Both the position numbers and the translations under genes were made by a program. 64,000 nucleotides of DNA from an uncultured Candidatus Peribacteria bacterium (GTDB taxonomy: Bacteria > Patescibacteriota > Gracilibacteria > CAIRYL01 > GCA-016699755): contig CAZLFD010000003.1 of assembly GCA_964558715.1 (NCBI GenBank), positions 2,312 through 66,311 of the forward strand. The letters run 5' to 3'. The notes under the pieces are model-generated. The model saw only the letters and a list, made by a program, of their open reading frames with translations. It was not told the DNA's origin and did not search any database. The number at the start of each line of letters is the position of its first letter. The stretch's first letter is position 1. Positions 15,738-60,817 of the stretch are shown piece after piece.

Positions 15738-16736
15738 ATGTTTATTTCTATAGTGAAGTATTTTTTATTGCTCTTACTGAGTTTCGGACTTCTCGTTATT
15801 CCGCTCACTCTGGTGCAAGCAGAGCCTTCCTCAGCCGATACGTGGGCGATTCAATTGCATAACATCAATCCTGTAGCTATTGCCGATGATGACGTTGACT
15901 TGGTCGTAATCGATTACGCCAAAGACGGGACCGACAAAACGGCATTTTCAGCGGCTGAAGTAGCAGCCATGCAGCAGAATGGCAAAAAGGTATTGGCCTA
16001 TCTTTCGATTGGAAAGGCGGAGGCGTGGCGGTTCTATTGGAATAGCCAATGGGAAGCGGCGAGACAAGGTGATTGCTACGAAAGATACTACGATTACCTG
16101 AAATACAAGTGGACATGGCGAAACAAATGCGTACCTGGGAATACTCCACTCGTCGGGAACAAAGACCCACTGTGGGATGGCGAATTGTATGCCCGCTATT
16201 GGGACAATCGCTGGAAAACAGATGTGGTAGAACCGTACATGGAACGAATTATGGAGGCAGGCTTTGATGGGGTCTATTTGGCGCATGTCGACGCGTATAA
16301 CTACTGGGGCGCCGGTACCCTTACCAGAAGGACATATGCGCGCGAGATGCAAGAGCTAATCATTACGCTTTCAAGTACCGCAAAGCAGCAAAGTGGTGAT
16401 GATTTTTTAGTGATACCAGAAAATGTATCCGGTATTATTTCTGCCAGTAAAGATGTGCAGCTCAATAAAAAATTCCTCACTGCAATTGACGCCATTGCCG
16501 AGCGGTCACTCGTGTTTGATACTACAAAAGCCAAACGCGGCAAACGGATTACGGAATTGCGGACTGATTATTCATACCAAAAACCGATACTGGTGCTCGA
16601 ATTTTCGTCCAGTACATATGCGCCAACCCTACGTAGATGGCAAGAATCATTTTTAAAAAAGTATGGCCTACGTATGAGCATTACGCGAAGTAGCAATAAT
16701 GCGGAATTGGACTCAATCTCAGAACCAGTCAAATGA
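15738..16736 (+). CDS. Secreted MJ1477/TM1410-family putative glycoside hydrolase (GH114 / endo-alpha-1,4-polygalactosaminidase-like TIM barrel)
   Basis: Signal peptide MFISIVKYFLLLLLSFGLLVIPLTLVQA. Family-typical motifs VVIDYAKDG, KVLAYLSIGKAEAWRFYW, YARYWDNRW and GFDGVYLAHVDAY. Confidence 0.75.
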   Translation: MFISIVKYFLLLLLSFGLLVIPLTLVQAEPSSADTWAIQLHNINPVAIADDDVDLVVIDYAKDGTDKTAFSAAEVAAMQQNGKKVLAYLSIGKAEAWRFYWNSQWEAARQGDCYERYYDYLKYKWTWRNKCVPGNTPLVGNKDPLWDGELYARYWDNRWKTDVVEPYMERIMEAGFDGVYLAHVDAYNYWGAGTLTRRTYAREMQELIITLSSTAKQQSGDDFLVIPENVSGIISASKDVQLNKKFLTAIDAIAERSLVFDTTKAKRGKRITELRTDYSYQKPILVLEFSSSTYAPTLRRWQESFLKKYGLRMSITRSSNNAELDSISEPVK

Positions 16737-19700
16737 AACAAGGAGCAAAGCGAGTCATTGTCGGGCTGATGATTCTGTCGCTTGTAATCGGATACATTCC
16801 ACATCCAGCAAATGCGGCGGAACATACGATTATTGAGATCAGCGAGATCTACGGCAATGCCAACAGCGGAGAGCAAGAATGGATCGAGCTGCACTCACTG
16901 AGCACAATGGAAATCAATCTTGCTGGCTATACGCTCTCAGATAACATCGGGGTCATCTACACGATTCCCACCGACACTGTGCTTAAGGCAAACGAATATC
17001 TGGTGATACAAGGTTGGAGCAACAAATTAAACAACACCGGTGATTCGGCGATTCTTGCAAACACGAATAGTGAAGTCGTTGCAGCAGAATACAATTTTCC
17101 GGCAATCGATAAAAATACCAGTTGGTATCCTAAATATCAACGAGCAGATGTACCTACTCCGGGGTTGGCGCATCCAAATGACGAAGCAAGTGGCGAAACA
17201 GAAGATGATGGAGAGTCAACGGAAAATGACGAAAGTGGCGATACAAGCGAAGAAGGCACATCTGACGAAGAACAGCAGGGTGATACGGAGGAAAATGAGG
17301 AAAACACGGATGATACAGAGGAAAACGATGAAAGGAGCAATGATGAAGAAGCTGGCGAAAATGACAGACAAGATACCGAAAATGAGTCGGAGAAGGGTGA
17401 CGAAGAAGGCAGAGAAAGTTCGCCATATGCGACAATCGGCGAGATCCTGATTTCAGAAATTGTCAGTAACCCAGAAGCAGGCGGAAACGAATGGGTCGAG
17501 CTAGAATCAGCATCTGATCGCGAGCTTGATTTGGCGGGATACATCTTTGCTGATGCTATTGGTGAATTTTATACACTGCCGCAGACAAGCATCATTCAAC
17601 CGGGAGATCGAATTGTATTCTTTGGTTGGGGCAACAAGCTGAATAACACGGGTGATTCACTGTATCTCAAGTTACCGGATGGCTCGATAGTCGATGAAGT
17701 GATCGATTTTCCGAAACTCGACAAAGGCGAAAGTTGGCTACCAAGCGTAAATGCCAAGGGCATTCCTACCCCAGAGGAAGAAAATATTCTATTGGAGAAC
17801 GAGCAATCGCCAAGCCCGACCCCGGAATCAACTCCTTCACCCACGGTGAATCCAACACCCGAACCGACAATCACCATTTCGCCACTTCCATCACCGTCAT
17901 CGGTGCCAAGTAGTTCGCCTTCACCACCAAATCCATTCCCATTAGTTACGCCGACTCCAAGCGCCAGCCCTCAGCCGACCGATGCGCCTACTCCCCTGCC
18001 ATCACCATCGCCAGAACTCCTTCCCCTTCCTGAAATCGGCGACGTCTTACTCAGCGAAATCATGAGTAATCCTACTTCGGATGAAGAGGAATGGGTGGAG
18101 CTCGTTTCGACATCGACAAACTCATTCAGTCTTGATGGCTGTACACTTGAAGATGCAGTTGGCGAGATTTATACGCTTACTACAACAGAGAGAATCGAAG
18201 CAGAAGAGTATTTGGTGGTGAGTGGCTGGGGGAATAAGCTAAATAATACCGGTGATTCATTGACGCTGAGGCTTCCTGATGGAACAGTTCTGGATACTGT
18301 GGTCAATTTTCCCGCTCTCGAAAAAGGAACAACGTGGTTGCCGCAAACGAATCAGCTCGGAATCCCGAGCCGGGGACAGAAAAACACTCCGCTTCCGGTA
18401 GCAACGCCAACACCCACGCCAGAGGCCGAAGAGCCGGAACCGTCTTCAGAACCGGCACCCAGCGAGCCACTAGCACCAACACCTGCACCCGGTGAAGTGC
18501 TCATCAATGAGATTATGAGTAACCCGCTAGAAGGCGATGAGTGGATCGAGCTGATTTCGAAAGCAGAAAATGAACTGTCACTAAATGGATTCGAATTCCA
18601 CGATGCGACTGGCGGTTTTTTCACATTCGACAGCGAAGCGGTAATCGCGCCAACAGAATTCCTTGTCGTTTCTGGGTGGTCGGATAAATTAAACAATACC
18701 GGCGATTCATTAGCCCTGATAAGCGCGGAGGGCAGTGTTATCGATGGCTTTATCGAGATTCCCGCAATGGACAAAGGCGAGTCGTGGAGTACCGATTTTG
18801 CCGCTGCTACAACGCCATCACCAAGAGAAGAGAATATTCCTCGCGAAACACCAGATGAAGAAAATGACGAAGGTGGCGAAGAAGATGAAAACAGAAAATC
18901 AGAAGATTCAGAAGAATCATTGCTGGCAAGCGATTCTGTCATTATTAACGAAGTGTTTCCAAGCCCCAGTGGCGGAGCCGATGAATGGGTAGAATTCTTC
19001 GTAACCGGGCAAGTAGATATTGACGTAAGCGGCTTTACGCTGAGCGATGAACAAGGTGTCATCTACACTTTTCCGGAAAGAACAGTGCTTCATCCATCAC
19101 AATTTTTCATTGCGACAGGGTGGACCGGAAAACTAAATAACAGCGGCGATAGCGTCATACTGCAAACCCCGAGTGGGAGTACGATTACAGAAATAACCTA
19201 CTTGAGCATACCGAGCGATGCGAGCTGGGGATTTGATGGCAATGCCTATCGCCGCACCGCTACTTCGACAGCAGGGAGTGAGAATGTCTTTCCGAGTTCA
19301 ACCGGTGGAGGTGGTGGCGGGAGCAGTTCTGCAAGCTCATCGAAGAGTCCATTGCCGACACTGCTTAAGACCAGTGCCAAGGTGAAATCGTTAGCGATTG
19401 ATAAATATGATATCCAGATTTCGGAGGTCGTGTTTTCAGGTGAAGAAGATTTTATTGAGCTCTATTGCGCTGAATGCGATGCAGATTTGGCCGGCTTACG
19501 CGTCGCAGACGACAAGGCTGTATTTGAATTTCCGCCAGAGTCGACGGTTGCTACGGGAGAGTATGTCGTAATTCATTTTGCTGATGCGCCAGAAGACGCC
19601 CGCCACGCCAAAGGGGTGTGGCACTTTTGGGCTAATAAAAAAGGGTTGACCGCAACTGATGAAACTATTTTTATTATCGACTCCCGCGGGCAGGTAGAAG

Positions 19701-21763
19701 ATGCGGTATGCATCGCTAATCAGAATGGGAAGTTCTCGCCCGGAGAGGAAGAAGATGTCGTACTGCTTATCAAACAGAATCAGATCAAGGCCGAACACCC
19801 GCTGACCGAAAGCTACTGTTTTGATTCGAGAAAGCTGAAAAATGGTGCTTCACTCATCCGCAGCGATCATGAAACCGGTTATGCTAATCAAGATTATTTC
19901 GCCAGTACCGAAAACACACCTGGCAGCAAAAATCCTGCACCACCTCAGCGCGCCGATGATGTAGTGTTGCAGATGAAAAAAGTGACGCGGATCTCTCCTG
20001 AAACAGTGATTGTAGAGATTAAAAATAGTAGCGGCAGAGCAATCAAAACAGAAGGTTTTGCACTCAATATCAACGAGCAAGACGTAGTACCGCTTCCAGA
20101 TGTGCGCCTTTTCCATCAAAAGTCAGTTTTTGTGACAATCGATGTGGAAGCGGTTTCGCCACTTACAACAGTGCACTTGGTTGATCATTGGAACGCGATG
20201 GGAGCTGAATGGAATGGTGAAATAAGCAAAGTAAGTGAGGGAGAAACGGGCCTAGTGATTTCCGAGATTCTGGCAGACCCAAACGGCGCCGATTCGGGGA
20301 ATGAATTTATTGAACTTCAATGTGTAGTAGAGAGCTGCGAAGCAAATACCTTTGCTCTGAGTATCGGTGATGAAGTAATGCTTATTCCGCAAAGCACCTT
20401 AAAAGAAAGTGAGTTTGAACTTATTCGCGATGCAACCGTGAGAAATTCGGAATTACACGTAAAAGTGATCGATTTTGCTCAAAGCACTCATCAAATCATC
20501 AGTCTTTTCAGTACTGAAACAGGTGAAAGCTATGCGCTATCGAATGAAGAGTATTATTGGACCTCATATATGACACCACTGGCACCAAATATGATTGTGA
20601 CGGATTACGGATCAAATGATTCAGACAGCGACGGTATCCCTGATCAGACTGAAATCGCGCTCGAACTTGACCCGAGCAGCTCCGATGCAAAAAATCCTAT
20701 CGCCATGCGCCTGTACAATGCTCATCTCCGAGAGATGACGAATATCAGCGTCGCAGAAGATGCCGACTCTATTCACATTACCGGCAGTACGATTCCCAAC
20801 ATGAAGGGTAAGTTAGTGCTTCACTCCAGACAGCACGTGTACGACATTGTGGCCGATGCCGATGGAAATTTTTCGCTCGATATAACTCCAGATATCGCAC
20901 CTGGCGAGCACACCATCGACTTGCTCTTCGAGCAACCAAATAGGCGTTTTGTTACCCTTTCTGCGCTGCAGACATTTGAGGTTTCACGTAATCCGCAGCA
21001 AGATTGGCTAACCGATATCAGCATCTATCGCTCGCTGCCAAACCCTGAAGGCAAAGATAGTAAACGCGAATACGTGATTTTAGAAAATCCTACTGATTCC
21101 GCTGGCTGGCTGAAAGGAGCGACGATTTCGAACGGAAAATCATTAAAGATTCTTCCCGACACTTTTTTTACGCCACATCAGCGCAAAGTATTTTTGGCGA
21201 AAGATCTGCCGAGCTTAAAAAACAAAAACGGAGAGTTGGTTTTGTCGGATGATCAAGGAAAAGAGTTCGACCGATTAGCATGGAAGAATGCCAAAAGCGG
21301 GCAACTGTATTGGGAGGGGATGCCGCCATTGCTCACCAGGGCGATAGCCAACAAGGCAAAGAAATCGGGCGCTGCACGTTCGCGTTACCCAATCATGCAT
21401 GGGCCGGAATATGTGGAACAAGCAGTCGAAAAAGACAATCTGCGCTTTTTGGGGATTACAGAAAACATGCTTCAGGTAAGCAATACACAAGGATCAGTGA
21501 CGTTTTATCCGCTGAGCGAAAATCTATCGGCAGCCTTTCTGCAAAGTTCGCTGCAGCAAAACGACCGTGTTTCAATCATAATCGTTGGGAATACCGTGCA
21601 AGCGGTGCGCAAACTTCCGCCAAAGATGATCGGTGCGCCTCCAGTTTCTAATTTTTATCGAGGATCGATATTTCTGCTACTTTTAGCCGGAGTATTAGGA
21701 ATCGCCGCTGTGGGAACTACGAGAAAAATATCAGCAAAGAAGTGTGTCCAATCTGAAACCTAG
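16733..21763 (+). CDS. Giant (1676 aa) surface protein built from repeated lamin-tail domains (LTD), with acidic and Pro/Thr/Ser linkers and a C-terminal TM anchor
   Basis: Signal peptide, then at least 5 canonical LTD units, each with I(S/N)EI..NP...EW(I/V)EL...L.G(Y/F/C)...D......(Y/F)T....(W)(S/G)NKLNNTGDS. About 3 more divergent LTD-like units follow. There is a DSDSDGIPDQTE calcium-binding-like motif and a C-terminal hydrophobic helix IFLLLLAGVLGIAAVG followed by basic residues. The start overlaps the upstream stop (ATGA at 16733-16736). Confidence 0.85.
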   Translation: MKQGAKRVIVGLMILSLVIGYIPHPANAAEHTIIEISEIYGNANSGEQEWIELHSLSTMEINLAGYTLSDNIGVIYTIPTDTVLKANEYLVIQGWSNKLNNTGDSAILANTNSEVVAAEYNFPAIDKNTSWYPKYQRADVPTPGLAHPNDEASGETEDDGESTENDESGDTSEEGTSDEEQQGDTEENEENTDDTEENDERSNDEEAGENDRQDTENESEKGDEEGRESSPYATIGEILISEIVSNPEAGGNEWVELESASDRELDLAGYIFADAIGEFYTLPQTSIIQPGDRIVFFGWGNKLNNTGDSLYLKLPDGSIVDEVIDFPKLDKGESWLPSVNAKGIPTPEEENILLENEQSPSPTPESTPSPTVNPTPEPTITISPLPSPSSVPSSSPSPPNPFPLVTPTPSASPQPTDAPTPLPSPSPELLPLPEIGDVLLSEIMSNPTSDEEEWVELVSTSTNSFSLDGCTLEDAVGEIYTLTTTERIEAEEYLVVSGWGNKLNNTGDSLTLRLPDGTVLDTVVNFPALEKGTTWLPQTNQLGIPSRGQKNTPLPVATPTPTPEAEEPEPSSEPAPSEPLAPTPAPGEVLINEIMSNPLEGDEWIELISKAENELSLNGFEFHDATGGFFTFDSEAVIAPTEFLVVSGWSDKLNNTGDSLALISAEGSVIDGFIEIPAMDKGESWSTDFAAATTPSPREENIPRETPDEENDEGGEEDENRKSEDSEESLLASDSVIINEVFPSPSGGADEWVEFFVTGQVDIDVSGFTLSDEQGVIYTFPERTVLHPSQFFIATGWTGKLNNSGDSVILQTPSGSTITEITYLSIPSDASWGFDGNAYRRTATSTAGSENVFPSSTGGGGGGSSSASSSKSPLPTLLKTSAKVKSLAIDKYDIQISEVVFSGEEDFIELYCAECDADLAGLRVADDKAVFEFPPESTVATGEYVVIHFADAPEDARHAKGVWHFWANKKGLTATDETIFIIDSRGQVEDAVCIANQNGKFSPGEEEDVVLLIKQNQIKAEHPLTESYCFDSRKLKNGASLIRSDHETGYANQDYFASTENTPGSKNPAPPQRADDVVLQMKKVTRISPETVIVEIKNSSGRAIKTEGFALNINEQDVVPLPDVRLFHQKSVFVTIDVEAVSPLTTVHLVDHWNAMGAEWNGEISKVSEGETGLVISEILADPNGADSGNEFIELQCVVESCEANTFALSIGDEVMLIPQSTLKESEFELIRDATVRNSELHVKVIDFAQSTHQIISLFSTETGESYALSNEEYYWTSYMTPLAPNMIVTDYGSNDSDSDGIPDQTEIALELDPSSSDAKNPIAMRLYNAHLREMTNISVAEDADSIHITGSTIPNMKGKLVLHSRQHVYDIVADADGNFSLDITPDIAPGEHTIDLLFEQPNRRFVTLSALQTFEVSRNPQQDWLTDISIYRSLPNPEGKDSKREYVILENPTDSAGWLKGATISNGKSLKILPDTFFTPHQRKVFLAKDLPSLKNKNGELVLSDDQGKEFDRLAWKNAKSGQLYWEGMPPLLTRAIANKAKKSGAARSRYPIMHGPEYVEQAVEKDNLRFLGITENMLQVSNTQGSVTFYPLSENLSAAFLQSSLQQNDRVSIIIVGNTVQAVRKLPPKMIGAPPVSNFYRGSIFLLLLAGVLGIAAVGTTRKISAKKCVQSET
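16820..19260 (+). repeat. Five tandem LTD-coding modules separated by low-complexity linker-coding DNA
   Basis: The NKLNN(T/S)GDS-coding segment recurs near 17024, 17636, 18236, 18686 and 19132. Linkers are a D/E-rich one (about 17190-17420), a P/S/T-rich one (about 17800-18040), a P/E-rich one and a D/E-rich one. Confidence 0.85.
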
Positions 21764-37444: not shown

Positions 37445-38989
37445 CTATGCTTCGATTGTCTCATGTTCGTCACCGGAACGCAGTTCTGGAAAGTGTCGGT
37501 AAAGAACAAGCATTGGCAGCTCGCCCTTTCTTCTGGCGCTGGCTAAATCACGCCAATCAGCCGGATTCATGCAGTCTTCTAGTCTTAGTTTCGCCAAATA
37601 TGTTGCGAGCTTTTTATCACCGGCAAAGCCTGTTTTCGGCTGCATATGCAGCAACTCCGTTTTCCAAATATGGTTTGCGATGTCACGCGCATGCGGGTCT
37701 TTTTGAAAATGTTTGTGCATTATCGAAAAAATAGCTTTCATACGCTCGTCTCCATCATCAACAAGCAGGGCATCTTCGGTATGCGGACCATAGCGGAAAG
37801 CCATCAAGTCAAAGACCGCAGTTCGAAAAGACGGTTTGCCATCTGCGACTTGAACGATTTTACTCACAACCTCAGGGTCACTTACGAGCGACATAATGAG
37901 CACCTGTTCCTTTTTAGAGTAATGCATTTCAAATTCAGAACCAACCGATTTACCTGAGCGGTTACGAGCAGCATGCGGCGGAGTAATAGGCGGATGATAT
38001 GCCATAAGCATGGCTGTTTGTATTTTTTGGTGTGTTGGGCGCTGTCGTTCTATTCGCAATGAATCTTTAGCCAAAACATTTGTAAGTCCGGGTGCGAAAT
38101 CTTGCGACACAGAAGACTCGTACGTTTCAACTCCGGTCTTTTTGTTAGCGTCCGTAGATGTATTTCTTGCAAGCTTTATGCTTCCTTCCTTGGGCGCACC
38201 TCCTTCACCGCCATTCGAAAGCAGATCAGCTCCGCCCCCACCTGAGCCATCAACAAATCCGCTCTCCTTCGGATTTCGTGAGACATAGTACGCCTTTGTT
38301 GTATCGCCCCCGTCACCCTGTGCACCTTTTCCGCACACAACTGGTATTCCATCGACATCAACTAAAACCGTGCCGCCACCTGTTAAAGTGGTGTGAATAT
38401 TCTCGAGGTGATCTGCTGTTTGAATGCCCTCATTTTCGAGCAGAAATGTGATTTTTTTGACCTGTTCTTCAATCGGCACTGTCTGCAAACGGTTCGCCAG
38501 CGATGGCGTTTTTAGGCCTTCTTGATTGGGCTGCGCGATTTCAGGGCGAATGGTATCTTCGCCATAGAGAGCATTGTTCACCGATTCTTGCGACTCAGAA
38601 AAAATATAAAGCGCGTCGGCTTCAGCACCTTCAAGTTCTGGCAGTTTTGAAAGAAAGGGATTACGCGAATAATACCAATATTCTTGTTCTTCTTGATATT
38701 GCGCATTGAACATTTCGGAAACTGCCCTGCGCATCGTCGCATCGGCCGTTTTTTCTAATTCATCATCAGGGATTCTCTTAAAATCAAAGAGCGCATCTGC
38801 AATTCTTTCATTATCAGAGGCCGCGAGCTGAGGCTGCAATTCACCTCCCTCATCCGGACCGACTCTACCAGCTGGATATAAATAAATCAGTCGCTGCTCA
38901 GCCACAAACGTGCTTTCATGCCTCTTTTTTTCGAGATCATGCTCCTTCATTTTTTTTGGATTATTCAATACTCTCGATTTCTGCCTCAA
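37445..38989 (-). CDS. Hypothetical protein (514 aa), no recognised domain
   Basis: A long ORF of ordinary complexity with a Gly-rich central stretch (GGGTVLVDVDGIPVVCGKGAQGDGGD...GSGGGGADLLSNGGEGG). No signal peptide or TM. The start may be the internal ATG at 38950. Confidence 0.6.
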   Translation of the reverse strand: MRQKSRVLNNPKKMKEHDLEKKRHESTFVAEQRLIYLYPAGRVGPDEGGELQPQLAASDNERIADALFDFKRIPDDELEKTADATMRRAVSEMFNAQYQEEQEYWYYSRNPFLSKLPELEGAEADALYIFSESQESVNNALYGEDTIRPEIAQPNQEGLKTPSLANRLQTVPIEEQVKKITFLLENEGIQTADHLENIHTTLTGGGTVLVDVDGIPVVCGKGAQGDGGDTTKAYYVSRNPKESGFVDGSGGGGADLLSNGGEGGAPKEGSIKLARNTSTDANKKTGVETYESSVSQDFAPGLTNVLAKDSLRIERQRPTHQKIQTAMLMAYHPPITPPHAARNRSGKSVGSEFEMHYSKKEQVLIMSLVSDPEVVSKIVQVADGKPSFRTAVFDLMAFRYGPHTEDALLVDDGDERMKAIFSIMHKHFQKDPHARDIANHIWKTELLHMQPKTGFAGDKKLATYLAKLRLEDCMNPADWRDLASARRKGELPMLVLYRHFPELRSGDEHETIEA

Positions 38990-49773: not shown

Positions 49774-51357
49774 TTAAGCCCGAAAAAAACGGGAGAGAAA
49801 GTTGCGCACGCGTAAGCCAAGTGTGGGACTGTCAGTACGCGAAAGAGCCACGCCAGCAAGAGTCCAGAATGTTAGCGCAACGACAGAAGATTCCCACGAG
49901 TGGAGAAAGAGACAAGCCGCCGACACGCCGACTAAGCCTAGTAGTGAGGCCTTGCTCTCGGCGGTTCTTCGCCTAAGCAGCTGCAGGGCAACCATAGCAA
50001 GAATCGCCAAAAAGAGAACGAGGCCGATAATTCCGGATTCTAAACCGACTTGCAAATACCAACTCTCCGGCAAAAAACCAGTTTCACCCGGGCGGGCAAA
50101 GCGCGCGCTTGCCGGGCCAGCATCACCGAGGCCAAGGCCGAAGGGATATTGCATGATGTAATACGCACCATCGCTCCAGCGCTCCCAGTGGCCCTGGCTA
50201 CTGCTAGGACGGAGGATGATGTTCCAAAAAAACGCGCCGTAAAACGCACGGATGAATACAAGCGCTCCTAAAAAGAGCGGAAAGACCATGCCCGCAAGCA
50301 GAGGAAAGGCTTGGCGGCGCGAGTTCCATGCCTGCAGCAAAAGCAGTAATGCCAGAAATAGCGCTGAAATCGCTAGTGATACCGGTCTGAGTGCATCCCA
50401 CTTTTCGATGACAAGCGCCGGAAAAAAGAGGCCAAAGATACCGCCGCCAAACAAGGCGAGGTAGCCAATAGCGACAAACGGGCGGGCGGATTGGACGACA
50501 AAAAGCGCAGCCATAGCGGCGATCATACCGATCCATGCTGAGCGCGACCAGGTAAGAAACAGCACCGCTATACCGGCGACAAAAACGGCATAGAGCGAGA
50601 TCCGCAACAAACGCGTGCTGGCTTGGGCAGCAAAAAAAAGAAAAAGCGGGAGAACGACCAGTAGATATGCACCCAATTGATTGGGGCCAGAAAGGGTGGA
50701 TTGGATACGACAAAATTCTTCGTGCGTAATGCGGTTTTCGATCTTGTGGCAGTACGACAAGCCTTGTCCGGCCTCGGTAATGCCGTATTCACTGCTGTAA
50801 CCAAAATTGACAAGGAACTCTTCGGGCAAGATAGTTTTTTGGAGTAACCCAAACGTGATCACTAGCGCAGCCGGACCCATAGCACAGGTAAAGAGTAGTT
50901 TTTTTTGCGCCGCCGTAAACGTGAGTTGACGCACCACCACAAAGGTGATCAGAAATAGGAGGCCGTACTTGGCGCCCCACACCATCTGCACCAGATTCTG
51001 CGGAAAGCCATCCCCAGTAAACAGTACCCCTGTAACTAGCGATACGACTACAAAACCAGCGATGATGTAATCTAATAACCCTTTCTGCAAAGTTGAACGG
51101 CGCTGCCACATAAGCGGGAGCACAAGCGCAAAAAAGCCAACAAGTAATATCTCTTTCCAGGCACTGATCAAAAACAAGAACACCGGTGGCGCATCAGCAA
51201 AAACCGCCATGAGCGCGGTACTGAAAAACGGATGAAACGGGAGTGCCGCCAAAATAACTGCCAGGATGAGAACAGCAATTCGCTGCATAAAAATATCCGT
51301 AAAGATTGTTCGTATCTTCACGATTTTTGCGCCTTTTTGCAATCCATGCATCGTCAT
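49774..51357 (-). CDS. O-antigen ligase / Wzy_C-family polytopic membrane protein
   Basis: At least 10 hydrophobic helices. LTWSRSAWIGMIAAMAALFVV is the characteristic Wzy_C segment. The start may be ATG 51288 (MQRIAVLILAV). Confidence 0.75.
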   Translation of the reverse strand: MTMHGLQKGAKIVKIRTIFTDIFMQRIAVLILAVILAALPFHPFFSTALMAVFADAPPVFLFLISAWKEILLVGFFALVLPLMWQRRSTLQKGLLDYIIAGFVVVSLVTGVLFTGDGFPQNLVQMVWGAKYGLLFLITFVVVRQLTFTAAQKKLLFTCAMGPAALVITFGLLQKTILPEEFLVNFGYSSEYGITEAGQGLSYCHKIENRITHEEFCRIQSTLSGPNQLGAYLLVVLPLFLFFAAQASTRLLRISLYAVFVAGIAVLFLTWSRSAWIGMIAAMAALFVVQSARPFVAIGYLALFGGGIFGLFFPALVIEKWDALRPVSLAISALFLALLLLLQAWNSRRQAFPLLAGMVFPLFLGALVFIRAFYGAFFWNIILRPSSSQGHWERWSDGAYYIMQYPFGLGLGDAGPASARFARPGETGFLPESWYLQVGLESGIIGLVLFLAILAMVALQLLRRRTAESKASLLGLVGVSAACLFLHSWESSVVALTFWTLAGVALSRTDSPTLGLRVRNFLSRFFRA

Positions 51358-51387
51358 TCCGACTTGACCAAAATCGAAGGGGCGATC

Positions 51388-52347
51388 TTATTGCACCACA
51401 CCGCTGGCAAACGTAGAAGTCACAACGTAACTGATTAAGACAACGACGATGCCGATGATCGCCCCAGTAATGACTTTTTTTCCGGATTCGACGCGGTCTT
51501 GATCGCCGAATGAGATGATCCATTGACTACCCCCGTACAAAAAAGCGACAAAGGCGACTACCGCTAAAAATTGTAGAAAGTACTGGATAATGGCGATCGC
51601 CTCACGTACGCCAGTGTCGGCGTCGGGATTATAGGTGACCCTCCAATCGTTTCCGAGCAGGTTTGGATAGATGACTTCACGAATAAGGACATCGTTGACA
51701 AGAATTACTAACAAGCCGACACCGACCCACTGGAACACCGTCTTTTGTTGCGATATTTCTTCAGTTTCACCCAAGGCGACGATCATCTTGTAGCCCGATA
51801 CCATCACATATACCACTGCGACGATGATGAGAATCCCCTTCACCCATTCAAGCAAGGCGAGTATCTCGATAATCGCCCTACCACTCGCTGTCGTCAAATT
51901 ATCAGGGCTCGCCAAAACACCACTCACCACAACAGCACCGCCGCCATAGAGAATATCGAAGATCACCGTATCGACCACAAGCATGCCCACTAATCCGATG
52001 AGTGACCAGGCGACTCCCATTTTACCGGTGCTCACCTTGTCTTCTTCGCCATTACTCGTAACCAAGAGTAAAGAGCTCCATGCCAACCATGCAATGGCGA
52101 TGGCTGCGACCAAAAACTTGATTATATCGACCACACTCAAAATAGCATTGGCGAGCATCCGTTGCCCGGGATTATTGATCACCTCGCCCACATCTGTTCC
52201 AGACTGGTCTTCGCATGCCAAGCCCGCAGCATTACAAGAAAAGGGGATTCCTTGATTTTGGCTGGCAAACGCGGTATCCATCACCACCGGAGTAAGTGAG
52301 AGAATCAAGCCGCAAACCGCCAGCAAGATGACAAAAATTGAACGCAT
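51388..52347 (-). CDS. Secreted/membrane protein made of three tandem pilin-like (two-helix hairpin, VirB2/TrbC or T4SS-pilin-like) modules
   Basis: Signal peptide MRSIFVILLAVCGLILSLTPVVMDTAFA. Three units carry the loop signature ...LVTSNGEEDKVSTGKMGVAWSLIG..., ...IVALGETEEISQQKTVFQWVGVG... and ...IISFGDQDRVESGKKVITGAIIG.... The family call is from memory and is not HMM-verified. Confidence 0.6.
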   Translation of the reverse strand: MRSIFVILLAVCGLILSLTPVVMDTAFASQNQGIPFSCNAAGLACEDQSGTDVGEVINNPGQRMLANAILSVVDIIKFLVAAIAIAWLAWSSLLLVTSNGEEDKVSTGKMGVAWSLIGLVGMLVVDTVIFDILYGGGAVVVSGVLASPDNLTTASGRAIIEILALLEWVKGILIIVAVVYVMVSGYKMIVALGETEEISQQKTVFQWVGVGLLVILVNDVLIREVIYPNLLGNDWRVTYNPDADTGVREAIAIIQYFLQFLAVVAFVAFLYGGSQWIISFGDQDRVESGKKVITGAIIGIVVVLISYVVTSTFASGVVQ

Positions 52348-53267
52348 CAGCCTGGATTAAAGACAGCTACAAGTGCAAAGGCCGAAAGAATGATTACGAT
52401 GCCTAAGAGCGACCCGCCGATGATTTCTTTTGCCTTGCGGTGGCGATCTTCATCGCCGAACGAAGTCACAAAATACCCTCCTGCGACAATAAATGATGCC
52501 ATCGCAAGGACACCCAAAAAGGTAAGGATAAAGCGGAGCAAGCCGACCATCTGCTGAGCAAAGCTTTCAATCTCTCCCTCGCCCGGGGCGCCACTGTCCG
52601 GGTAAAACACGGTGCGCACCAGCGGTTCGGCGAACATGGCGATCAGCAGACCAGAAAAGCCCCATTGAAAAATCTTTTTCGCGCTCGAAATAGTTTCTTC
52701 TTCGCCATTAGCGGTAATAAATTTGTAGCCGGCATAAAACACCGTCGCGATGGCAATCGGTGTCAGGGCGACTTGGATAAACGCCGTAATGCGAGCAAAA
52801 ATCTGCTCAGCGCCAGCTTGGTTGATGATATCTGCGTTCGCGTTGGTGGGGGCAAAAGCATTGCCGATATCTACTGCCAGCGAAATAACGACGAATCCGG
52901 CTATTCCCCAGCCCAGATTCTTGCGCTGCTCACTGATCATCTCTTCTCTTCCGGCACTACCGACCAGCGTGAGCAGATACACTACCCAGATCAAGAGCGC
53001 CACAAAAGCGAAGATATACTTGAACTGCGGCAAGACAAAATTGTAAAACAGATTGCGAATCGCCTCTACTGAGCTGCCGCCAGTCGGCTGTATCATCACG
53101 TCAACCGGGTCAAAGACATCTGTCCAATCTCCTAAAACACCGCCACCCGCCTCGTTTCCTGGCACGGGGGCTTCAGGAACCTGCTGCGCTAAAGCTGTCT
53201 GGGGTTCTGCCCAGAGCAGTATTGCCACAAGGCCGACAACCAGTAAAACGAAGAATTTGGTTTTCAT
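52347..53267 (-). CDS. Paralogous tri-modular pilin-like membrane protein
   Basis: Signal peptide MKTKFFVLLVVGLVAILLWAEPQTALA (ATG 53267; the track ORF extends to 53336). The units are ...LVGSAGREEMISEQRKNLGWGIAG..., ...FITANGEEETISSAKKIFQWGFSG... and ...VTSFGDEDRHRKAKEIIGGSLLG.... TGATG overlap with the next gene. Confidence 0.6.
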   Translation of the reverse strand: MKTKFFVLLVVGLVAILLWAEPQTALAQQVPEAPVPGNEAGGGVLGDWTDVFDPVDVMIQPTGGSSVEAIRNLFYNFVLPQFKYIFAFVALLIWVVYLLTLVGSAGREEMISEQRKNLGWGIAGFVVISLAVDIGNAFAPTNANADIINQAGAEQIFARITAFIQVALTPIAIATVFYAGYKFITANGEEETISSAKKIFQWGFSGLLIAMFAEPLVRTVFYPDSGAPGEGEIESFAQQMVGLLRFILTFLGVLAMASFIVAGGYFVTSFGDEDRHRKAKEIIGGSLLGIVIILSAFALVAVFNPG

Positions 53268-53344
53268 ATCGCTATAGTCTACAATTTTTGCGTGTTTTGC
53301 GCAACTGTTTGCCATTTTTATTGATATTCTCCACAATCTGAATC

Positions 53345-57032: not shown

Positions 57033-57074
57033 CTTCCTTCCCTTGGACTAAGAGGATGATCGAGGCGGGGTTAC
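57033..57074 (+). repeat. Degenerate copy (F) of the dispersed element downstream of fbp
   Basis: CTTCCTTCCCTTGGACTAAGAGGATGATCGAGGCGGGGTTAC aligns with copy D (CCCTTGAG..AGGAGGAGTGAGAGGGGGTAG). Confidence 0.45.
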
Positions 57075-57099
57075 GAAAAAAAACAGACACACCAAAAAT

Positions 57100-57174
57100 T
57101 GGTTGCGGGGGTGGGAATCGAACCCACGACCTACGGGTTATGAGCCCGTCGAGCTACCACTGCTCCACCCCGCG
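57100..57174 (-). tRNA. Initiator tRNA-Met (anticodon CAT), CCA encoded
   Basis: The reverse complement reads CGCGGGG-TG-GAGCAGTGGTAGCTC-G-ACGGG-CTCATAA-CCCGT-AGGTC-GTGGG-TTCGATT-CCCAC-CCCCGCA-ACCA. The C1:A72 mismatch and three G:C pairs closing the anticodon stem are initiator hallmarks. Confidence 0.93.
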
Positions 57175-57343
57175 ACACCGATATTCTCACACCAAACTGA
57201 TGGCGTACAAGCATTATTGCGAAATCGGCGCCAGATGTCTAGTGCTTTCTTCGGTTCTACGCGCCAAACAGCCGGCAAAGCGGTGTGTAGCGCGCGCCAA
57301 GTGTATTCTCCACCCTGATCGGATTATGGCATGCTCGGCAGTA

Positions 57344-57940
57344 TCACTTGCTAAATATGCGCTTCAGAAAGCGCAGGACCATGCTGAATAAGTCGTCGGA
57401 TATCTTGCCGTCGCCGTCGGCATCGAGGAACCGCTGCGCCAATGCCATTGGCATACCTTGCTCTTGCTTGAGTGATCCGGTGGCCTGTTGCAGCAGACCG
57501 GCGATATTGCCCGCATCGAGCCCCTGCTCGAGCTTCGCTTTTCCCAACGCGCCCATCACCACCGGGGCGAGCATGGCGAGGATCTTTCCGGTCTCTTGCT
57601 TACCGGCACCGGTCTGGCCGGCGAGCAGTTCTTCTACCTGCGCAGGGTCTGTAAACAGATGCTGCAAAATACCACCCCCTTCACGCATCGCCGAGTCGCC
57701 GAGTGCGTCATCGAGATGGTTAAAGATCGAGCCGTCGTGGTCTTTGGTCAGGGCTTGGTCGAGCTCTGCGGCACCCTTGGCATTTGCAGAGTTCTTGGCG
57801 AGCGCACCCACCAAAAACGGTAAGGCCGTGTTGATAAGCGATTGCGCTTGGTTCGCATCTACCTGGGCCGCCTGGCCGGCTTTGGCCACGAAGGCATCGT
57901 TTATCTGGGCTTTGAGCGTGTCTGTGAGCAGGTCTTGCAT
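57344..57940 (-). CDS. DUF937-domain protein
   Basis: Repeated helical segments (NTALPFLVGALAKN, GGILQHLF, ILAMLAPVVMGALGK) typical of DUF937. The C-terminal DADGDGKISDDL is EF-hand-like. Confidence 0.65.
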   Translation of the reverse strand: MQDLLTDTLKAQINDAFVAKAGQAAQVDANQAQSLINTALPFLVGALAKNSANAKGAAELDQALTKDHDGSIFNHLDDALGDSAMREGGGILQHLFTDPAQVEELLAGQTGAGKQETGKILAMLAPVVMGALGKAKLEQGLDAGNIAGLLQQATGSLKQEQGMPMALAQRFLDADGDGKISDDLFSMVLRFLKRIFSK

Positions 57941-58213: not shown

Positions 58214-58975
58214 CTACTGATTCATTTCAACTTTTTGAAACACAAACAAGTGCTCGTGCATGATGAGCAAGAAGTTATGTTCTTTGCTCTTCTTTTCCCA
58301 AAAACCGGTGGCTTTACAATTGTGCTGATGCTTGATGATATCTTCTTTTAACAGGAATCCGGCCTTCAAAAAGCGATCCATGACTTTATATGCCAAAGGC
58401 TGATACATTTTTTTTCTGCGTGTATCACCCATTAGAATTGCGCAAAACTGGCCATTCTTGAGTACACGGTATAATTCTGCAGCAACTTTCTCCATTTCGT
58501 CACAGAATTCATCGAGATTATTGATGCCGGACAGGTCTTGAGCAATTTCCCCCTCACTATACTTAATAATATCCGCGTATGGCGGATGAGTGAGAGCAAA
58601 ATCAATACTAGCATCTTCAATAAAACTAAGATCGCGCGCATCATTCAAATGAAATTCTTGCTTGCTCGGTGTTTTAAAATCGAACTCCAACGACTTCTGC
58701 GATCGTTCAATTGCCCCCGGATTAATATCACAAGCGATTAGGTTTCTGTGAAGAAGCTTGGCTTCTATCGCCGTTGTGCCACCGCCCACCATTGGGTCCA
58801 GTAAGGTATCGCCCTGTTTCGAATATCTGAGTACAAGATTGCGTACAACTTCCGGTGCCCAGTTCCCACGCCAATCAGATTTATGTGTGGCCCAGTTCCC
58901 ACGCCGTCGAAAGCTCCACACAGTAGTACATTCTTGGTCAAACTCTGGCGGGTTCAAGGATTTTGGATCTTTCAT
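58214..58975 (-). CDS. SAM-dependent DNA methyltransferase (N6-adenine/N4-cytosine type), second methylase of the R-M cassette
   Basis: SAM-binding LLDPMVGGGTTAIEA precedes the catalytic (D/N/T)PPY-type motif ALTHPPYADII, a motif order unlike the beta-class DpnA. Lies 4 nt downstream of the endonuclease gene. Confidence 0.72.
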   Translation of the reverse strand: MKDPKSLNPPEFDQECTTVWSFRRRGNWATHKSDWRGNWAPEVVRNLVLRYSKQGDTLLDPMVGGGTTAIEAKLLHRNLIACDINPGAIERSQKSLEFDFKTPSKQEFHLNDARDLSFIEDASIDFALTHPPYADIIKYSEGEIAQDLSGINNLDEFCDEMEKVAAELYRVLKNGQFCAILMGDTRRKKMYQPLAYKVMDRFLKAGFLLKEDIIKHQHNCKATGFWEKKSKEHNFLLIMHEHLFVFQKVEMNQ

Positions 58976-58978
58976 GAT

Positions 58979-59851
58979 TTAGAAAATATAGCCCAGTACT
59001 CCATTTTCCATATCGGCAAGGTTAAACACATAATCGTTATGATTATAAGTTTCCTCCAGCGAATTTCTGGAAGTTAGCCAGCCCTTTCCGTCTGTTATCC
59101 ATACGAAATCGATATCTTGGCGCTTTAGCTCATCATATAAACTACGAAATTCGCCGCACACTGCTTTAAGCTTTGAGCCGCCACCATTGTAAAAATTGGT
59201 TTCAACTAAAGTTAATTTACCTTCATCATTACCGGGCTTCCAGACTGCAAAATCAAAACTTCTTTCAGATTTATCAATCTCAACAACTATGCCCCACCTG
59301 GTCTGAATCATGGTCGGCGTTGCCTGTGCGAGATATTCACACCCACCGGTCGCACAAAATTCTTTTAAGTACTTTTCGACAATGTTTTCCATTATCTTTC
59401 CACCTCGATTCTTTCTGCCATTACTGTCTAGACCCACTTCAACGCCAAATACATAATCAACCAGGTTCTTTACACCGTCTTCCTTAAACAATCTATGTAA
59501 GCCAGACTTCTCAATAAATTCATAACACTTTTTACTCGTGTCTTCCGAATATGTAATTAGCTCCCCAAAGTCGAAAAATTCAGAACTTCTGTCTTCGTAA
59601 TCAAAAATTTCGAGTTGGTCTTCTCGCGTAGCAACTAACACTGGAATAGCACGAATAATATCCGGCTCTTGTCTAAAGAGACGATCGAACTCAGCCTGCA
59701 AATCATCTTTTCCTAGCAGGTAATTTAACTTGTTCAGGGTTATTTCCATTCTCGCCTTATTTTCAAAGACCTTGTTCCAATCCACAAAATACTCCCAAGT
59801 TTTAATTGAGTCTTTCAGGGTAGCCATGAGGTTGCTAAAATTTTTATCCAT
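58979..59851 (-). CDS. Type II restriction endonuclease, DpnII/MboI family (GATC)
   Basis: Strong recalled similarity to R.DpnII: NLVDYVFGVEVGLDSNGRKNRGGKIMENIVEKYL, VETNFYNGGGSKL, FVWITDGKGW. The 290 aa length matches the family. Confidence 0.9.
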   Translation of the reverse strand: MDKNFSNLMATLKDSIKTWEYFVDWNKVFENKARMEITLNKLNYLLGKDDLQAEFDRLFRQEPDIIRAIPVLVATREDQLEIFDYEDRSSEFFDFGELITYSEDTSKKCYEFIEKSGLHRLFKEDGVKNLVDYVFGVEVGLDSNGRKNRGGKIMENIVEKYLKEFCATGGCEYLAQATPTMIQTRWGIVVEIDKSERSFDFAVWKPGNDEGKLTLVETNFYNGGGSKLKAVCGEFRSLYDELKRQDIDFVWITDGKGWLTSRNSLEETYNHNDYVFNLADMENGVLGYIF

Positions 59852-59866
59852 TAGCTTGTTTGATAT

Positions 59867-60817
59867 TTAAACATAGTTGTATACAACAATCTCTGAAACC
59901 TTCCCTCGCTTACTGGCAGCCGAATTTACTGCTCTACCGGCATAAACCGTGTGAATTTTGGCACCATCAATTTCAGAGTATATTTTTCGAATAAATGGCG
60001 TATCTGAATTAGATAACATTACAAAACAACCTTTCTTATGGAGCTTATTGAATGTATCTCGTAATTCAATTTGTTCTTTCTCTAAAAACCCGCCCGCAGT
60101 ATAGCTAGTGAAGCTTGATGTTTTATTAACGGGGTAATACGGCGGATCGAAATACACAAAGTCGCCCTTATTAGCATGCTTCAAAACATCTTTGTAATCA
60201 CGCTTCGCAATCTGTACGTTCTTTAAAAGCTGATGCACATTTCTGAGATTCACTTCATCGCAAATAACTGGGTTATTATATCTACCAAAAGGCACATTAA
60301 ATTCACCTTTTGAATTCACACGATATAAGCCATTAAACCCAGTTCTGTTTAAATAAATAAAGCGCGCAGCAATTTCTACCTTTGACAGATTCTGTGGCTG
60401 TTTGGCTCGCACCGAAAGATAGTACTCTTTCTCGTACTTGTGCTTTTTGAGGCTTTTGATTAATTCCTCCGGACACTCTTTGATCACTTGATAGGTAGTG
60501 ATGAGTTCTTCGTTCACATCCGACAAAACTGCGTTGTAGGGCTGGATATCAAAGAATACAGCACCACCACCGACAAACGGTTCAAAGTAAGTATTATTTT
60601 CAATATCAAACTTGTCTGGCAAGGGATATAGCTTTTGGTATTGGGCTAGTAATTGCCGCTTGCCACCAACCCATTTAATAAAGGGCTTGGCTTTCGCAAT
60701 AGGGCTTGTTGTCAAAAAATTTTCTACCTCATGTACCAAATCTGCAAAAAAACCCCGCTTTCTCCAGCTCGCCACCTTTATCTTGGGAAATCGCTGAAGC
60801 AAGGCATCCGTAGTCAT
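59867..60817 (-). CDS. Dam-family DNA adenine methyltransferase (M.DpnII/M.MboIA-like)
   Basis: KPFIKWVGGKRQLL, FEPFVGGGAVFF (SAM binding), YFDPPYYPV (DPPY catalytic motif). Confidence 0.9.
   Translation of the reverse strand: MTTDALLQRFPKIKVASWRKRGFFADLVHEVENFLTTSPIAKAKPFIKWVGGKRQLLAQYQKLYPLPDKFDIENNTYFEPFVGGGAVFFDIQPYNAVLSDVNEELITTYQVIKECPEELIKSLKKHKYEKEYYLSVRAKQPQNLSKVEIAARFIYLNRTGFNGLYRVNSKGEFNVPFGRYNNPVICDEVNLRNVHQLLKNVQIAKRDYKDVLKHANKGDFVYFDPPYYPVNKTSSFTSYTAGGFLEKEQIELRDTFNKLHKKGCFVMLSNSDTPFIRKIYSEIDGAKIHTVYAGRAVNSAASKRGKVSEIVVYNYV

Follow-up and report, generated by a model that had tools for sequence, protein, structure and literature searches.

A widespread gene pair for fused VirB2-type hairpin proteins beside a Wzy_C gene in a Candidatus Peribacteria bacterium

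The window analysed here, a 64-kb stretch of DNA from an uncultured Candidatus Peribacteria bacterium, contains three open reading frames (ORFs) that share the minus strand in the order A-B-W (table 1), with a gap of 30 nt between B and W and another of 18 nt between W and guaA. The true start of A is probably the ATG at 53267, which gives a protein of 306 aa beginning with MKTKFF (52347-53267); we place it there because the orthologues begin with MKTK or MQTK. The original prediction described two overlapping genes with a TGATG junction, each encoding a signal peptide followed by three modules, and the ORFs and the Pfam matches reported below agree with this description. We read the one-base overlap as translational coupling of the two genes, and because of this coupling A and B would be made in roughly equal amounts. 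The signal peptides, predicted by reading them off the sequence, open with a basic n-region, continue with a hydrophobic core, and close with A-x-A, which reads ALA in A and AFA in B; in the AF2 model of B, a signal-peptide helix spanning residues 2-18 is followed by a low-confidence tail.

Table 1. Genes, predicted signal peptides, hairpin modules, and gene junction of the A-B-W locus (i-E, value obtained with the independent single-module profile)
Feature	Position	Strand	Details
Gene A, tri-modular T4SS_pilin protein	52347..53336	minus	maximal ORF 329 aa
Predicted Sec signal peptide of A	53187..53267	minus	MKTKFFVLLVVGLVAILLWAEPQTALA, end A-L-A; hydrophobic N-terminus and orthologue alignment
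Module A1	52833..53075	minus	aa 88-168 of 329-aa ORF; helix, loop GREEMISEQRK, helix; i-E 2.6e-7
Module A2	52587..52832	minus	aa 169-250 of 329-aa ORF; loop NGEEETISSAKK; i-E 1.7e-17
Module A3	52350..52586	minus	aa 251-329 of 329-aa ORF; loop FGDEDRHRKAKE; i-E 4.9e-18
TGATG junction	52345..52349	minus	ccaggcTGATGcgt; stop of A and start of B overlap by one base
Gene B, tri-modular T4SS_pilin protein, paralogue of A	51388..52347	minus	319 aa ORF
Predicted Sec signal peptide of B	52264..52347	minus	MRSIFVILLAVCGLILSLTPVVMDTAFA, end A-F-A; hydropathy and AF2
Module B1	51928..52176	minus	aa 58-140; AF2 helices 60-97, 102-133; loop NGEEDKVSTGK; i-E 2.2e-10
Module B2	51652..51906	minus	aa 148-232; AF2 helices 148-190, 195-230; loop LGETEEISQQK; i-E 1.5e-10
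Module B3	51391..51636	minus	aa 238-319; AF2 helices 243-278, 283-315; loop FGDQDRVESGKK; i-E 9.5e-23
Gene W, polytopic Wzy_C (O-antigen-ligase-like) membrane protein	49774..51357	minus	527 aa ORF

Both A and B match the T4SS_pilin family of Pfam (PF18895, curated cut-off 26.6 bits) in three stretches, A with an E value of 1.8e-12 (47.6 bits) and B with 8.7e-17 (61.4 bits). All six modules are also picked up separately by an independent profile of 159 single-module pilin ORFs from unrelated metagenome contigs (i-E 2.6e-7 to 9.5e-23), which matches none of 400 shuffled A and B sequences at E<0.01, and weaker matches to TrbC/VirB2 (PF04956) are seen in relatives. The loop signature that had been noted to recur six times is real; written as (S/A)xG(E/D)x(E/D)...K, it is the consensus across the whole family (TAAGNEEKVKKAKK). 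Judged by these profiles, the modules are T4SS_pilin hairpins of the VirB2/TrbC superfamily, which upholds the identity first proposed for them, even if A and B are not stand-alone single-hairpin proteins of about 100-150 aa but combine three fused hairpins in 306-319 aa. The two proteins are colinear paralogues (28% identity, E 1e-35), and the modules inside one protein share just 17-30% identity, so that the repeat is visible to profiles alone and is missed by self-BLAST. Each also matches, in three stretches, the Mbov_0395 family of pilin-like conjugal transfer proteins of Mycoplasma ICEs (NF045849), with scores of 33.5 and 25 bits, below the family cut-off of 40; that monoderm two-helix T4SS protein is likewise pilin-like, but it is single-module and ICE-borne.

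The pilins VirB2 (T-pilus), TraA (F-pilus), and TrbC are made with a signal peptide and consist of two long hydrophobic helices connected through a short charged loop, with both ends of the chain on the outer face of the membrane. The units of A and B resemble them in the signal peptide, in the charged-loop hairpin of two helices, and, according to the topology that we infer, in having their termini outside. Hydropathy and AF2 agree that each unit consists of two long hydrophobic helices and a short charged loop. The AF2 model of B, obtained with an alignment of 85 sequences (pLDDT 84.1, pTM 0.65), has six helices of 32-43 residues which pair into three hairpins, with pLDDT above 90 within the hairpins and lower confidence in the linkers. 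A Foldseek comparison of these confident hairpins with solved structures found no similar polytopic fold (best E 0.16, TM at most 0.22), and no solved pilin chain is among the Foldseek or sequence matches of A and B. Across 85 homologues, the hairpin loops have a K+R density of 0.17-0.19 per residue, the linkers and N-terminal tail one of 0.05-0.08. Following export via Sec and cleavage of the signal peptide, mature A or B would be anchored in the cytoplasmic membrane by six long helices; its N-terminal tail, both linkers, and its C-terminus would face outward, and the three K/R-rich hairpin loops inward.

The organism belongs to the candidate phyla radiation (CPR), as first supposed, and the closest relatives are assigned to Candidatus Peribacteria and Gracilibacteria. 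The fused form is not rare. We scanned 168 proteins, for the most part the 150 best clusters from an exhaustive search; about 160 contain at least three modules, and 120, whose median length is about 325 aa, contain exactly three. Proteins with three modules make up most of the top of the search, and forms with four to 13-16 modules also exist. Two adjacent tri-modular genes are present in all 11 tri-modular loci examined, including L010 and L011, for which the pair rests on ORF calls made in this analysis, and in each of the 10 loci where gene calls define the junction, the two genes overlap or are separated by no more than 9 nt. The packing of six modules into two genes is therefore not special to this locus. 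Most tri-modular pairs sit amid housekeeping genes such as secE-nusG, nusB-rnc, and guaA-murC, and the pair is widespread but unstudied in the ultrasmall bacteria of the CPR.

The supposition that fused multi-hairpin forms had escaped description has fared better, since our literature search found no account of such forms of VirB2. VirB2-like pilin genes of Patescibacteria are known from 441 arrays of 2-11 separate genes (PMC12102498), and arrays of separate genes are reported also in PMC12857230 and PMC10633639; Southlakia epibionticum ML1 has an essential six-pilin array. The products of these arrays (PF18895/PF04956) resemble A and B in Pfam family, in the hairpin with its G-E-E...K loop, in phylum, and in the clustering of divergent copies at one place, with about 25% identity between copies. 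They differ in that A and B carry three hairpins in one polypeptide and are encoded by two translationally coupled genes, usually amid housekeeping genes rather than beside virB4, and in that the positions of their modules are orthologous across lineages, whereas array genes are hypervariable.

This positional orthology bears upon a question that the fused form immediately raises: Could A and B be polyproteins that are cut in their external linkers to release six single-hairpin pilins, polymerising like VirB2? Every module alone resembles a complete single-module pilin, the linkers, modelled with lower confidence, are predicted to face outward, on the side of the membrane on which signal peptidase works, and the motifs AFA-P and ANA-D are present in linker 1 of A. 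However, each module most resembles its positional counterpart in the paralogue, and likewise in distant pairs; the triplication and the A/B duplication are therefore ancient, and processing into monomers is correspondingly unlikely, since modules that are positionally orthologous and only 17-30% identical are not interchangeable copies. Moreover, orthologues share no conserved A-x-A or signal-peptidase-like site in the linkers. Linker 2 of B itself shows strong conservation (YPNLLGxDWxVTYNPDAxTG), a pattern that would fit a structural element, and in relatives with 6-7 modules the module envelopes overlap, which amounts to linkers of zero length. We thus consider this reading of the original prediction very improbable, and conclude that the pair does not give rise to six equal pilins by cleavage.

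The gene following the pair does encode a Wzy_C protein, as predicted: W matches the family with an E value of 4.2e-10 (40 bits, cut-off 31.7) and has at least 10 hydrophobic segments. The sequence of W alone finds no match to WaaL among solved structures, but a profile of 44 homologues of W matches WaaL (7TPG/7TPJ) at E 8e-4 over profile positions 212-407. A search for homologues of W found 76. The alignment with 7TPG covers a conserved Arg and an E/H-containing loop; it is weak at this E value and ambiguous around EHAH. In the family of W, R270 and E429 are invariant and H484 is conserved at 90%; E429 lies in PE[SN]WYLQ, a position that we tentatively take to be that of the canonical H-N motif. 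Enzymes of the Wzy_C type glycosylate pilins and S-layer proteins in other bacteria. W shares its domain with PilO/TfpO (the partner of PilA), PglL, and WaaL, and lies directly downstream of pilin-like genes, but its neighbours differ from those of PilO/TfpO and PglL in being T4SS-type hairpins, not type IV pilins, and its linkage to them is confined to one clade.

A dedicated O-oligosaccharyltransferase similar to PilO/TfpO or PglL, which would attach glycans to the outward-facing tails or linkers of A and B in a surface scaffold, is a role for W that would fit several features of the locus: the common strand of the three genes, the short gap between B and W, which contains no terminator-like site, the order A-B-W, which five loci preserve even where identity has fallen to 47% for B and 49% for W, and the mature N-terminal tail of A, where three orthologues are rich in Ala, Pro, and Gly. 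Yet the adjacency carries little specific information because the whole block FBPase-miaA-nadK-A-B-W-guaA-sigma-murC is syntenic in the genomes that keep A-B-W. It is found only in the Peribacteria clade, where it is held together with the entire block; within 8 kb of W homologues that share 39% identity there is no pilin module, though one of these homologues still adjoins guaA, and all distant pilin pairs examined outside this clade are without a Wzy_C neighbour. The orthologues of L007 and L090 lack the Ala/Pro tail while retaining W, and the surface polysaccharides and S-layers on which Peribacteria spend heavily provide W with other acceptors (PMC4736985). The proposed glycosylation of the pair by W accordingly appears quite improbable to us. 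We take W to be a divergent WaaL-like glycan ligase or polymerase, whose gene forms with the pair and guaA an operon-like block that is conserved locally, and its role is more probably in general cell-surface glycan assembly than in dedicated pilin glycosylation.

Classical pilins of the VirB2/TraA/TrbC type are stand-alone proteins encoded in diderm T4SS operons that also encode VirB4. Co-encoding with VirB4 and other T4SS genes is not seen for A and B within the 64-kb window, which contains no VirB4, VirB6, or VirD4 gene; as noted originally, no VirB4, VirD4, or PilB-type ATPase is found among its ORFs scanned against Pfam (including all those of at least 250 aa) and by tblastn. The 47%-identical relative L007 encodes, directly upstream of A-B-W-guaA, an ATPase of VirD4 type with 832 aa that matches TrwB_AAD_bind (5.6e-11), DUF87, and TraG-D_C; this single adjacency constitutes weak evidence, because T4CP-like ATPases are common in Patescibacteria, with about two per genome, and seldom lie near virB4 (PMC12102498). 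The essential T4SS of Saccharibacteria has VirB2-like PF18895 genes among its established components (PMC10633639, PMC12857230), and in the class Gracilibacteria T4SS genes are reported to be dispersed and VirB6 to be undetectable (PMC12102498). The label 'pilin' for PF18895 proteins of Patescibacteria is itself an inferred one, since we found no pilus of such proteins demonstrated in the literature for any Patescibacterium.

The family of A and B, their six modules, paralogy, and hairpin secondary structure, the conserved gene pair, and the gene neighbourhoods are results of this analysis, whereas the membrane topology, an A:B assembly, and a role in T4SS or pilus function are our interpretation. 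On balance, we favour with little more than even confidence the view that these paralogues of three fused VirB2-type hairpins, exported via Sec, form an A:B hetero-oligomer and constitute a structural part of the T4SS-like envelope machinery of Patescibacteria. The hairpins in such an oligomer would be non-equivalent, and the pair could serve as a pilus protomer that comes already fused, or provide a base or conduit in the membrane that is built from VirB2-like hairpins. A different possibility is that the pair forms a static polytopic channel or platform of the inner membrane, built of triplicated VirB2 hairpins without being a filament subunit, and fills the VirB6/PrgH-type role that is undetected in Gracilibacteria. 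This would be consistent with the six predicted membrane helices per protein, modelled by AF2 as one unit, with the good conservation of the helices among orthologues while the exposed N-terminal tails vary, with the single-copy, conserved, and housekeeping-embedded nature of the pair, when single-module pilins occur in variable arrays, and with the reported scarcity of VirB6 homologues in Microgenomatia and their absence in Gracilibacteria (PMC12102498). We nevertheless regard it as unlikely, given that A and B showed no sequence or fold similarity to VirB6/TrbL or any solved membrane protein in our searches, and that the length of their helices exceeds what a bilayer needs and is typical of pilins.

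Returning to the favoured view of A and B as fused structural hairpins, single-hairpin proteins could dock on the pair, and the relatives offer candidates in other lineages. A gene for a protein that has one pilin module and a long extracellular part comes after the pair in L005, L006, L010, L011, and L093; such single-module proteins downstream of pairs reach 1585 and 2351 aa and contain PKD repeats. These giant adhesin-like proteins hint, from their gene order and domains, at co-assembly with the pair. It is conceivable, though we hold it only as a tentative and rather doubtful extension, that the tri-hairpin pair and its relatives with 4-16 hairpins represent a distinct, undescribed class of pre-fused VirB2 protomers, which would either form a conduit resembling a pilus or take the place of the VirB6-type channel in the essential T4SS of Patescibacteria, with giant PKD adhesins plugged in by a single hairpin; if so, the pair would be the conserved core of an apparatus for contact between epibiont and host.

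The genes A and B, together with the Wzy_C gene W, form three closely spaced minus-strand ORFs spanning positions 49774-53336 of the window. A and B overlap by one base (TGATG), which belongs both to the stop codon of the former and to the start codon of the latter, and the true start of A is probably the ATG at 53267, since its orthologues begin with MKTK or MQTK. On the same strand, guaA, a gene for an ECF-type sigma factor and murC lie 3′ of W, while a NAD kinase gene, divergent from A, starts at 53345. No terminator-like site between genes came up in a scan for promoters and terminators, whose other matches lay inside T-rich coding sequence and were uninformative.

Coordinates of the genes under study, of comparable features in related loci (L-numbers) and of other features of the window
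Feature	Source	Positions	Strand	Description
Gene A	window	52347-53336	minus	ORF call; Pfam PF18895 T4SS_pilin, E 1.8e-12, three stretches
Gene B	window	51388-52347	minus	ORF call; Pfam PF18895 T4SS_pilin, E 8.7e-17, three stretches
Gene W	window	49774-51357	minus	ORF call; Pfam Wzy_C, E 4.2e-10
LTD-repeat gene	window	16733-21763	plus	1676-aa protein; six Lamin Tail Domain (LTD) repeats, E 2.9e-91
ORF	window	37445-38989	minus	514 aa; no Pfam match at E<=0.01
Long ORFs	window	57056-57391		overlap the tRNA-Met gene; probably spurious
tRNA-Met gene	window	57100-57174	minus	
Restriction-modification system	window	58214-60817	minus	DpnII type: DpnII endonuclease, D12-class N6-adenine methylase, second N6_N4 methylase
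VirD4/TrwB-type ATPase gene	L007	6042-8540		832 aa
Prepilin-like gene	L004	10843-11292		149 aa; type IV prepilin N-methylation motif (N_methyl, 2.3e-7)
Four-gene cassette	L006	2719-11564		two tri-hairpin genes, giant pilin-module/PKD protein, ~730-aa PKD-repeat protein
Four-gene cassette	L093	9059-20427		as in L006

The modules of one protein share just 17-30% identity with each other, and BLAST of each protein against itself showed no off-diagonal matches; this method is blind to the repeats because they have diverged too far, so that profiles are needed. To avoid circularity, we built a module profile from 159 single-module pilin ORFs of unrelated metagenome contigs, and this independent profile recovered each of the six modules separately (i-E 2.6e-7 to 9.5e-23), while none of 400 shuffled A and B sequences matched it at E<0.01, a control that excludes chance or low-complexity matching as the source of the modules. 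The original prediction of six pilin-like modules in two genes is thereby borne out, as is its assignment to the T4SS pilin family, and the recurring loop motif noted with it is the same as the consensus loop of the independent profile, TAAGNEEKVKKAKK. Sub-threshold matches of both proteins to NF045849 (NCBIfam), a pilin-like family of Mycoplasma ICE, were also seen, and a PDB sequence search with the module profile returned designed coiled coils only. As paralogues, A and B align colinearly (28% identity, E 1e-35), and the best partner of the second module of A is the second module of B (34%), with A1-B1 (21%) and A3-B3 (28%) among the closest cross-protein pairs. An assembly artefact fusing separate genes is ruled out, as fused ORFs are kept in many independent contigs.

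An AF2 model of B based on 16 sequences was weak (pLDDT 62), but with 85 tri-modular homologues it reached pLDDT 84.1 and pTM 0.65. In the better model a signal-peptide helix is followed by a low-confidence tail at about residues 19-59 and then by three hairpins with helices of 32-43 residues (60-97/102-133, 148-190/195-230 and 243-278/283-315), joined by two linkers of lower confidence. Neither model had a Foldseek match against the PDB below E 0.1, and the whole chain of the better one has no similar solved structure (best E 0.16, TM <=0.22), the matches being generic helical hairpins such as those of the ATP synthase c subunit and PsbZ; hence the model of B does not look like a known transporter bundle, the fold that would have spoken against a pilin reading. 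Among the 85 homologues, K+R residues are two to three times as dense in the hairpin loops as in linkers or N-terminal tail. This bias and the signal peptide agree with a predicted topology that has the loops on the inner side of the membrane and the tail, both linkers and the C-terminus on the outer side, as if the VirB2 topology occurred three times over.

Could such proteins be precursors to be cut into monomers, as once suggested? Comparison of five orthologues each of A and B shows conserved helices and loops, a conserved linker 2 in B (YPNLLGxDWxVTYNPDAxTG) and variable N-terminal tails, with no signal-peptidase-like site shared by the linkers; moreover, some relatives with 6-7 modules have no linker at all. 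The orthology of module positions likewise speaks against interchangeable hairpins. The idea of a poly-pilin precursor is therefore weak, and cutting into six equal pilins appears unlikely from these sequence comparisons.

The positional orthology extends well beyond close relatives. Two adjacent tri-modular genes occur in all 11 tri-modular loci examined, overlapping or lying <=9 nt apart in 10/10 loci for which gene calls give the junction. These pairs belong either to the Peribacteria clade (the window, L001/L002, L003, where tblastn alone revealed the first gene, L007 and L090) or to distant lineages (L004, L005/L008/L093, L006, L009, and L010 and L011, whose pairs come from our own ORF calls). 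In distant pairs the third modules are closest to A3/B3 and the first mostly to A1/B1, a pattern that points to a single, ancient triplication before A and B arose by duplication. Next to the pairs lie mostly housekeeping genes: secE-nusG-L11-L1, nusB-rnc or guaA-murC. At L007 (B 47% identical), an ATPase gene lies directly upstream of A-B-W-guaA, its product matching TrwB_AAD_bind, DUF87 and TraG-D_C and carrying an N-terminal membrane helix plus DUF8128. The window contains no homologue of this ATPase, and, in line with the earlier remark, no VirB4, VirD4 or PilB-type ATPase turned up among its ORFs compared with Pfam, every one of 250 aa or more included. A gene for one pilin module and a long extracellular portion comes after the pair in L005, L006, L010, L011 and L093, with products of up to 1585 and 2351 aa bearing PKD repeats. 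Another PKD protein follows in L006 and L093, thus forming a four-gene cassette whose giant protein (1585 or 2351 aa) has its single T4SS_pilin module before the PKD repeats; L005, L010 and L011 hold the first three cassette genes, after which the contig ends. The prepilin-like gene of L004 comes directly after the tri-hairpin pair.

How frequent are fused hairpin proteins? HMMER, run exhaustively over 1.84 billion cluster representatives with a single-module profile, gave 39,846 matches at E<=1e-3, of which 1,878 had E<=1e-10. Modules were recounted in 168 proteins, the best 150 plus matches from earlier word-index searches: exactly three were present in 120 of them (median length about 325 aa), the others including 4, 5, 6, 7, 8, 10, 11 and 13 modules, with 16 stretches called by HMMER itself in P0064 (1775 aa). 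Fused poly-hairpin proteins are thus a sizeable class in sequence databases; the ranking favours multi-module proteins. Five of the proteins found (P0019, P0021, P0064, P0076 and P0108) comprise 7 to 13-16 consecutive T4SS_pilin hairpins in 606 to 1775 aa, some with no linker between modules, and L012 has a 7-module gene (606 aa) within an array of single-module genes. A metagenome scan brought up chiefly arrays of single-module genes, with close relatives from Peribacteria absent. Patescibacteria are known for arrays of 2-11 separate VirB2-like genes, including the essential array of Southlakia epibionticum (PMC12102498, PMC12857230, PMC10633639). We found no mention of fused multi-hairpin forms in this literature; the supplement of PMC12102498 gives PF18895 matches without lengths, so that fused forms there are not recognisable. 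The arrangement, originally put forward as one not known to be described, hence appears undescribed in these papers, but it is common in sequence databases.

For W, the gene downstream of the pair, we detected 76 homologues, with identity falling gradually from 68% to about 25%; those with names are hypothetical or O-antigen ligase family proteins, mostly of Peribacteria or Gracilibacteria MAGs. The family profile matches the WaaL structure 7TPG (E 8e-4), while a PDB sequence search with W alone returned nothing. R270, E429 and the loop glycines G405, G407 and G440 are invariant, and H484 is 90% conserved. Within residues 403-443, E429 lies in PE[SN]WYLQ..LE.G, in the place of what we take to be the canonical Wzy_C/WaaL motif, H-N-x-x-L..E.G; W and its relatives may accordingly be a distinct Wzy_C subfamily. 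The order A-B-W-guaA is found in all Peribacteria-clade pairs (window, L001/L002, L003, L007, L090), where much of the surrounding block is also syntenic. Two W homologues of 39% identity differ: L091 keeps W-guaA with no pilin module within 8 kb, and L092 has neither pilin module nor guaA adjoining. Wzy_C genes adjoin none of the distant pilin pairs. The proposed link with pilin glycosylation is therefore backed by local synteny, which makes W a possible glycosylase of A and B, but is unsupported beyond it. Other glycan acceptors are plausible, because surface polysaccharides, S-layer proteins and sortase substrates are reported to be a major investment of Peribacteria (PMC4736985).

In functional terms, A and B would be six-helix membrane proteins co-translated at about 1:1, each with a fixed set of three non-equivalent VirB2 hairpins. 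Together they probably make up a heteromeric assembly of hairpins within a T4SS-like envelope apparatus in Patescibacteria. This assembly might be either a pre-fused protomer of a pilus or a base or conduit in the membrane, and single-hairpin proteins, including the giant adhesin-like ones, could join it. The case for a T4SS role is indirect: it is built on membership of the family, a single adjacent ATPase gene and published work on single-module paralogues. The main rival reading is a static channel substituting for VirB6, which is reported to be undetectable in Gracilibacteria (PMC12102498). Patescibacteria require their T4SS for epibiotic growth, its function and build being unknown (PMC11665869, PMC12857230). 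A coupled triple-hairpin VirB2-like pair would fix the number and order of non-equivalent units, and such an order constrains how a VirB2-based structure could be built in a single-membrane bacterium. It would also be a candidate for membrane components that profile searches have missed in classes such as Gracilibacteria, and the cassette with pilin-anchored giant PKD proteins suggests an unstudied mode of adhesin anchoring. Were the pair a divergent membrane protein devoid of T4SS role, our results would amount to routine annotation of a common CPR family.

The source genome is of Patescibacteria/CPR with the standard genetic code; an alternative code is excluded, TGA being the normal stop in 18 of 65 ORFs. 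Nearest to it are MAGs that bear the titles Candidatus Gracilibacteria bacterium JTS-AC289 and uncultured Candidatus Peribacteria bacterium; the contig search with a close alignment returned only two genomes. The remainder of the window is housekeeping (gyrB, uvrB, cysS, queA, ychF and an EPSP-synthase-family gene, PF00275), with a PIF1-like helicase and three tRNAs. The LTD-repeat gene, preceded by a GH114 glycoside hydrolase gene, probably encodes a large surface protein of the kind that Peribacteria typically have. The restriction-modification stretch has a GC content of 0.41 versus about 0.49.
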